From the NCBI RefSeq assembly GCF_003334335.1, contig NZ_QOWQ01000134.1: a stretch of DNA of 965 nt. The stretch is one strand, 5' to 3'. Each line of letters starts with the position of its first letter. The stretch's first letter is position 1. The stretch comes from Escherichia coli. GTDB lineage: Bacteria; Pseudomonadota; Gammaproteobacteria; Enterobacterales; Enterobacteriaceae. The notes below the pieces were generated by a model. The model did no database searches and was not told the origin of the DNA. It saw nothing but the letters and a program-made list of their open reading frames with translations. Below are positions 1 to 965 of the stretch, piece after piece. A program made the translations under genes and the position numbers.

Positions 1-965
1 GTGATTTCATTGCGGGTTTCTGTGATGGTGGTCTGCATTTCCGCCATCTCGTCCTTCAGCTGACTGTTGTCAATCTCTGCCCACAGCGCCTCTGCCAGAT
101 GCAGTTTTCCTATTTTTTCCCGAAACAGCCCCAGATACCCTTCTGCATCATTGCTGGCCCGTCCACTGGCTTCAACAAAAGCAGATTTACCCACCAGGTT
201 GACGCTGCGCACATAAAACCAGAAATCCTTTCCGGGCTTAATGTGCGGACCGGAGACACTCCACTGACTGCCGGTCCCCAGATAACGGGCAGAGGTTTCC
301 ACCTGTGCGGCGTCTGCAATTTTTGCCTCCGAAAACCAGAACTCAAACTGCACCGTCGGGTCATACACCGCAAGACGCGGGACTGCCGTTATCTGAAAAT
401 ACCCCGGCGTCAGTTCAACACCGGCAGGCGCTGCCGGTGCGTTAATCCGGAACGTGGTGGTGGCGGGTTCGCCCTGCTGGCCATAGCTGTTAATCGCCCT
501 GACCGTCAGGGTGTATTCCCCGGGAGGCAGGCCACTGAAACGGTGCTCCGTATCGGCAGTGATGGCGGTGGTCAGCAGGCGGCTGTTCTCACCGCTTCCA
601 CTGGTCAGGCGCAGACTGAAGCGCACGCCCTTCACCACCCGCGGCGTGTCCCATTTCGCCAGCGCCAGATACTGGCCGTCAGCTGCGCTCACCTCCACCG
701 TCAGGTGCTGCACTGCCGGTGGGATAACGCTGTTCAGGGTGCCTGACTGCGGCTCAAAGCGGGCTCCGTTATCCACAATGGCTTCTTTTTCCGGTACGTG
801 CTGCACTGCCGTGATGGCAAAGGTGCCGTCCGTGTTTTCCCGGATGGAGACACAGCGGAACAGGCGACGGCGCAGTGACGGCAGGGAGAGTCCCCACACC
901 CCGTATGTCTCCACACCATCAGGCAGGGTACTGACCTGTATCCGGTCCGGCGCGGGGTGTGCGGT
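1..965 (-). CDS. J: Host specificity protein J / tail tip attachment protein (lambdoid gpJ family), internal fragment, partial at both ends
   Basis: Minus-strand frame with codon boundaries at + positions 3..965 is open for all 321 codons (positions 1-2 are a partial codon). Translation N->C, reading 965->3: [321 protein letters not shown]. Long stretches match my recollection of the central part of phage lambda gpJ (e.g. [71 protein letters not shown]). The protein is not low-complexity, unlike the R/C-rich products of the track ORFs. No start or stop lies in the window, so the gene extends beyond both edges. Confidence 0.93.

Follow-up and report, generated by a model that had tools for sequence, protein, structure and literature searches.

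A 965-nucleotide stretch very probably internal to a lambda-type tip attachment protein J gene

The stretch of DNA analysed here, 965 nucleotides long and called the window below, very probably comes from the interior of a gene encoding a tip attachment protein J of the lambda type, the central tail fibre or baseplate hub protein. The gene looks intact and would come from a siphovirus or prophage of the lambdoid group whose host is Escherichia coli or a species close to it; we infer both the host and the integrity of the gene outside the window. Our high confidence is a single joint judgement on the identity of the J segment, its domain content, the intact-looking gene, and a lambda-like mechanism. 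As such, the window is ordinary and already known: it is a piece of an annotated gpJ allele, with nothing else hidden in it.

The frame running from position 965 to position 3 on the minus strand has 321 codons and no stop, and both the start and the stop of the gene lie outside the window. The five remaining frames have 2, 6, 11, 13, and 16 stops. In 20,000 mononucleotide shuffles of the window there were on average 10.4 stops per frame, and the Poisson chance of a stop-free frame is about 3e-5 per frame. Only three of the 20,000 shuffles were stop-free in any of the six frames, so an open frame of 321 codons is far above chance. GC content at its codon positions 1, 2, and 3 is 0.63, 0.49, and 0.67, a profile typical of a real enterobacterial coding frame. 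The J frame is also under purifying selection, as shown by dN/dS values of 0.093 against PhiR5_1, 0.107 against NCTC9112, and 0.234 against lambda; synonymous changes make up 7 of the 9 differences from PhiR5_1 and 15 of the 20 from NCTC9112. A single frame carries all 321 amino acids in 78 of 119 related loci. The earlier note had taken this window-wide minus-strand frame for the sole convincing coding one and had supposed that it was unlisted for want of a start or stop in the window. Both statements hold. The ORF list (at least 60 aa) contains exactly three ORFs, none of them in the J frame, because the listing omits ORFs which run off either end of the source.

The family of the product, named as gpJ in the earlier note, was identified consistently by searches with the translation. 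In PDB it matched 8iyk_J, "Tip attachment protein J", with E 3.8e-125 (phmmer), residues 8-300 of the query aligning to residues 543-837 of the chain collinearly with two single-residue gaps. By blastp it was 63.6% identical to lambda J 543-850 (E 5e-134); this was the very comparison proposed in the note, where a lack of significant similarity to gpJ was named as the refuting outcome. PHROG 31, "central tail fiber J", was matched at E 2.4e-115, and among PHROG tail families E values were as low as 3.5e-197. The NCBIfam model NF049904, lambda_TipJ, was matched over positions 536-856 of 1163 with E 4e-171 and 571 bits. Its curated cut-off of 1950 bits is a whole-protein score, for which the 321-aa fragment, spanning 28% of the model, is too short; the full-length PhiR5_1 J, 99.4% identical to the window protein, scores 2312.5 bits and exceeds the cut-off. 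Overall identity to lambda at the amino acid level is 62-64%, and lambda-like records appear solely in the 60-80% megablast identity band, in agreement with the view that this is a diverged homolog and not lambda J itself.

The domain content of the segment is shown by these matches to be the end of hub domain IV with the following linker, two fibronectin-like domains, and about the first 40 residues of the shaft:

3..965, minus strand: internal 321 codons of J, residues 536-856 of the 1157-aa PhiR5_1 J (open frame, homology, dN/dS)
747..965, minus strand: end of hub domain IV (HDIV) and linker to the FNIIIs, aa 1-73, lambda J ~536-609 (67% identity to lambda; HDIV boundary approximate)
435..746, minus strand: FNIII-1 (Ig-like), aa 74-177, lambda J ~610-714 (PF24421; 61% identity to lambda)
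126..434, minus strand: FNIII-2 (Ig-like), aa 178-280, lambda J ~715-817 (PF24489; 73% identity to lambda)
3..125, minus strand: start of the alpha-helical shaft (three-helix bundle), aa 281-321 (24% identity to lambda 818-860)

The two FNIII domains adjoin back to back, over their full Pfam models: Ig_J (PF24421) covers aa 74-177 with E 2.7e-41 (model 1-104 of 104) and Ig_J_second (PF24489) covers aa 179-280 with E 1.6e-38 (model 2-103 of 105). The FNIII-2 stretch also matched the gpJ713 fragments 9wca_J and 8xcj_Z in PDB (phmmer). Beyond it, in the shaft segment (aa 281-321), identity to lambda fades to 24%. We infer the position and the name of the shaft from PMC11101478, where the lambda AHS is located below the FNIIIs and includes helices 841-861. 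The earlier placement of the window in the central third of J was approximately right; the window occupies 46-74% of the protein, reaching slightly beyond that third into the start of the shaft.

The nearest allele is that of the plaque-forming Escherichia phage PhiR5_1 (PV340545.1, XSB41336.1), the complete genome of which encodes a full-length J of 1157 aa, annotated as tail tip host specificity protein J. The DNA of this allele is 99.1% identical (99.07%) to the window over all 965 bases without gaps, and the proteins differ at two of 321 residues. It is base-for-base the same as the window at nt 1-676, and all nine substitutions fall at nt 677-930. The IMG/VR alleles L078 and L080, for their part, are identical to the window over nt 524-965. 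Among 15 ungapped alleles the window has no private variant. Since identity passes in this way from PhiR5_1 to L078 and L080 with no private variants left over, the comparison indicates that the window allele is probably a recombinant patchwork of known alleles. The apparent recombination junction of the window lies between about 524 and 676. A mosaic of this kind is the expected product of recombination among co-resident lambdoid prophages.

We found no identical copy of the window among the 116 IMG/VR stretches having a 46-base exact pattern, where PhiR5_1, at 99.07%, stays the best match. A 160-base pattern across the junction had no exact match in the GTDB species representatives, a set with one genome per species in which a match was unlikely. 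The literature search for PhiR5 and PhiR12 gave unrelated papers only. Judged by its sequence, the allele is nevertheless not new, as an annotated J at 99.4% protein identity is in GenBank.

The relatives of the window are numerous, as the earlier note had expected in describing the J alleles of enterobacterial prophages as a large family. Megablast matched it to 151 phage records and, out of 5,426 complete E. coli genomes, to 2,056; those with a match have a median of 2 copies, and as many as 12 places are matched in one genome. The features beneath these matches are annotated as gpJ or tail tip host specificity protein J. More than 1,000 complete E. coli genomes have gpJ alleles of lambdoid prophages (NF049904) with 90-98% DNA identity along the full length of the window; these alleles differ from it solely in the combination of shared polymorphisms. 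Stx-converting phage J, with about 100 records, has the same 90-98% DNA identity. The copies in E. coli lambdoid prophages and Stx phages are annotated as "phage attachment tail tip protein J".

No flanking genes are contained in the window, and the neighbours predicted for it (an I-like gene upstream, lom- and stf-like genes downstream) were looked for in its nearest relatives. There they were found: I, K, L, and M upstream, and lom, tail fibre, and tail fibre assembly genes downstream. The gene order in related phages is H-M-L-K-I-J-lom-stf-tfa, and lambda has the same order around J. In PhiR5_1 the order is V-G-T-H-M-L-K-I-J-Lom, followed by a 523-aa hypothetical protein and then by a tail fibre assembly protein. 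The tail order of the prophage of E. coli NCTC9112 is that of PhiR5_1 apart from one inserted gene. Within the tail-tip module of this prophage lies an annotated porin, ompC (L002 13140-14303, which is NZ_LR134079.1 2976938-2978101), between an M-like tail gene (14510-14851) and L (12245-12943), sharing their strand with the other tail genes. It has the look of a moron-type insertion in an unusual position. A phage-borne porin beside host-specificity genes might influence superinfection or receptor availability.

Scans for non-coding features agreed with the remark that nothing in the window supports an undescribed system. There were no Rfam matches at E<=1, no tRNA or tmRNA genes, and no promoter-like sites in the window. 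Its repeats are short matches of two or three copies, 12-21 nt long. Four terminator-like hairpins were counted against 0.9 expected from shuffles, and as functional terminators they were rejected; lambda and many other alleles lack three of them. The fourth, at window positions 813-830 on the plus (antisense) strand, has a 7-bp stem which is kept in all 33 distinct alleles, lambda included; in lambda its loop is altered and the T-run is lost. The stem is kept only because it overlies the conserved DGT(F/Y)AIT codons, and the hairpin most probably arises as a side effect of the coding there. Taken together, the repeats and hairpins look like chance or codon by-products.

The three ORFs in the list lie in other frames than J:

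99..746, plus strand: listed ORF of 215 aa, antisense and in register with J (ORF list, at least 60 aa)
110..373, minus strand: listed ORF of 87 aa, off-frame (ORF list, at least 60 aa)
734..919, minus strand: listed ORF of 61 aa, off-frame (ORF list, at least 60 aa)

Their content of R, C, and G together is 23-26%, against 14% in the J frame, so that the earlier description of them as R/C/G-rich off-frame reads stands, while "low-complexity" was an overstatement. The length of the antisense ORF has its explanation in the codons of J. The J frame in the window contains no TTA, no CTA, and two TCA codons, the latter being both of the stops of the in-register antisense frame, and for this reason that frame stays open for long. 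In lambda the in-register antisense frame is open for 323 codons opposite J codons 536-858, and the whole lambda J has one TTA, no CTA, and four TCA in about 1,132 codons. As these codons are scarce in it, J is a strong generator of spurious antisense ORFs.

How may such a segment work in the tail? The opening mechanism of the lambda tail tip has been described by cryo-EM (PMC11101478; PMC10721106). In lambda, binding of LamB by the C-terminal domain is followed by refolding of the shaft; the strings of FNIII domains part and shift to the side, the hub domains then turn outwards, and the tube is opened (PMC11101478; PMC10721106). By homology, three copies of the present J would make up the tail tip. 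Binding of its C-terminal receptor-binding domain, which lies outside the window, to an outer-membrane receptor would cause the shaft to refold; the FNIII strings would then separate and swing sideways, and the hub domains would turn outward, opening the tube for DNA ejection. The window would encode the gate-and-clamp portion of J, presumably working as in lambda because the FNIII domains are 61-73% identical to those of lambda. The details of signal transmission may differ, since the shaft segment is only 24% identical.

Several other readings of the window have to be weighed against an intact phage J gene. The one with most in its favour is that J is broken somewhere outside the window, in a cryptic, decayed prophage, and that no functional tail tip is produced from the segment any more. 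Defects are found in many lambdoid prophages, an E. coli genome has several copies of J (a median of 2, at up to 12 places), and in 3 of 31 distinct related IMG/VR alleles there is a frameshift inside the homologous stretch. The frame of the window is itself intact across 321 codons, however, every variant in it is also present in intact alleles, most of the changes separating it from its closest relatives are synonymous (7 of 9 and 15 of 20), and the nearest relative, PhiR5_1, is the plaque-forming phage with the full-length J described above. Given the share of frameshifted alleles, 3 of 31, we consider a pseudogene unlikely. The three alleles in question are L109 (8262-9223), L107 (4440-5403), and L025 (2839-3779), each of which tblastn splits into two frames; the cause is either decay of these prophage copies or an error in assembly. 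It is far less probable, to the point of being barely credible, that the gene is part of a phage-tail-like bacteriocin (F-type tailocin) and not of a phage. The F2-pyocin tail fibre 25vf_A is indeed matched by residues 20-160 of the query (E 8e-07), but this weak match is about 118 orders of magnitude behind that of lambda J, and the near-identical relatives are found within typical lambdoid prophages and complete genomes of phages.

The plus-strand ORF at 99..746 could in principle be a real antisense gene overlapping J, being 215 aa long and lying in a register which in lambda too is open for 323 codons. This openness, however, follows from the avoidance of TTA, CTA, and TCA by the J frame (0, 0, and 2 codons), and changes between close alleles are three times as frequent in the antisense peptide as in that of J, with 16 residues against 5 in NCTC9112 and 5 against 2 in another close allele. 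In composition the antisense peptide resembles an off-frame read (R 12%, G 10%), and the scan found no promoter-like site on either strand of the window. We rejected it as a gene: its peptide is not conserved, it is a by-product of the codon usage of J, and its being real is extremely improbable. A variant of the main reading concerns the shaft, which clamps the FNIII cone and refolds on receptor binding. Because this part is only 24% identical to lambda and is followed, in the nearest full-length allele, by about 25 extra residues, there is a slim chance that this allele group transmits the receptor signal differently or suits a receptor other than LamB; expression of the antisense ORF is still less likely. 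An internal segment of an intact-looking lambdoid J gene remains by far the best explanation of the window.

For annotation this means that the three listed ORFs are off-frame artefacts to discard and that the window is correctly labelled as an internal segment of a J gene (tail tip, host specificity) from a lambdoid phage. ORF lists of short windows which require a start and a stop overlook the real gene, and genes avoiding TTA, CTA, and TCA yield long spurious antisense ORFs. The practical interest of J alleles lies in the host range of phages. Beyond correct annotation the significance of the window is slight.

The closest well-described protein is lambda gpJ (NP_040600.1, 1132 aa; PDB 8IYK, 8K35, 8XCI, 9E7M), with which the window is collinear over lambda 543-850. 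The linker, FNIII-1, FNIII-2, and shaft follow in the same order, with 61-73% identity in the linker and FNIII domains and 62-64% overall, in contrast to 24% in the shaft segment. How far the divergence extends along the whole protein can be seen in PhiR5_1 J, whose alignment with lambda J runs over the full length, 756 of the 1160 columns being identical. The N-terminal hub domains (HDII, HDII insertion, HDIII, HDIV) and the C-terminal central straight fibre with its receptor-binding domain are all present in this nearest allele. In bins of 50 residues, identity is 60-88% over most of the first 800 residues, with 48-50% in two bins; residues 799-898 are poorly conserved, similarity is back in the central fibre, and it falls over the last ~150 residues. 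It is here, just past the shaft segment of the window (PhiR5_1 799-898), that PhiR5_1 J has about 25 more residues than lambda J. This profile is the familiar mosaic pattern of J alleles. The C-terminal receptor-binding end of PhiR5_1 J has diverged from lambda, with 15 of 50 residues identical in one late bin. Because this is so in the nearest full-length allele, the receptor need not be LamB; the C-terminus, which binds the receptor and determines host range, lies outside the window.

Similarity reaches tail-like particles as well. The F2-pyocin tail fibre protein 25vf_A matched the window weakly but significantly, aa 20-160 (nt 486-908, minus strand) aligning with residues 558-698 of the chain at E 8e-07, which shows that J and F-type tailocins have the linker/FNIII-1 region in common. 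In the T5 baseplate hub protein pb3, compared here from the literature, the FNIII copies are separated, unlike the closed cone which they form in lambda.
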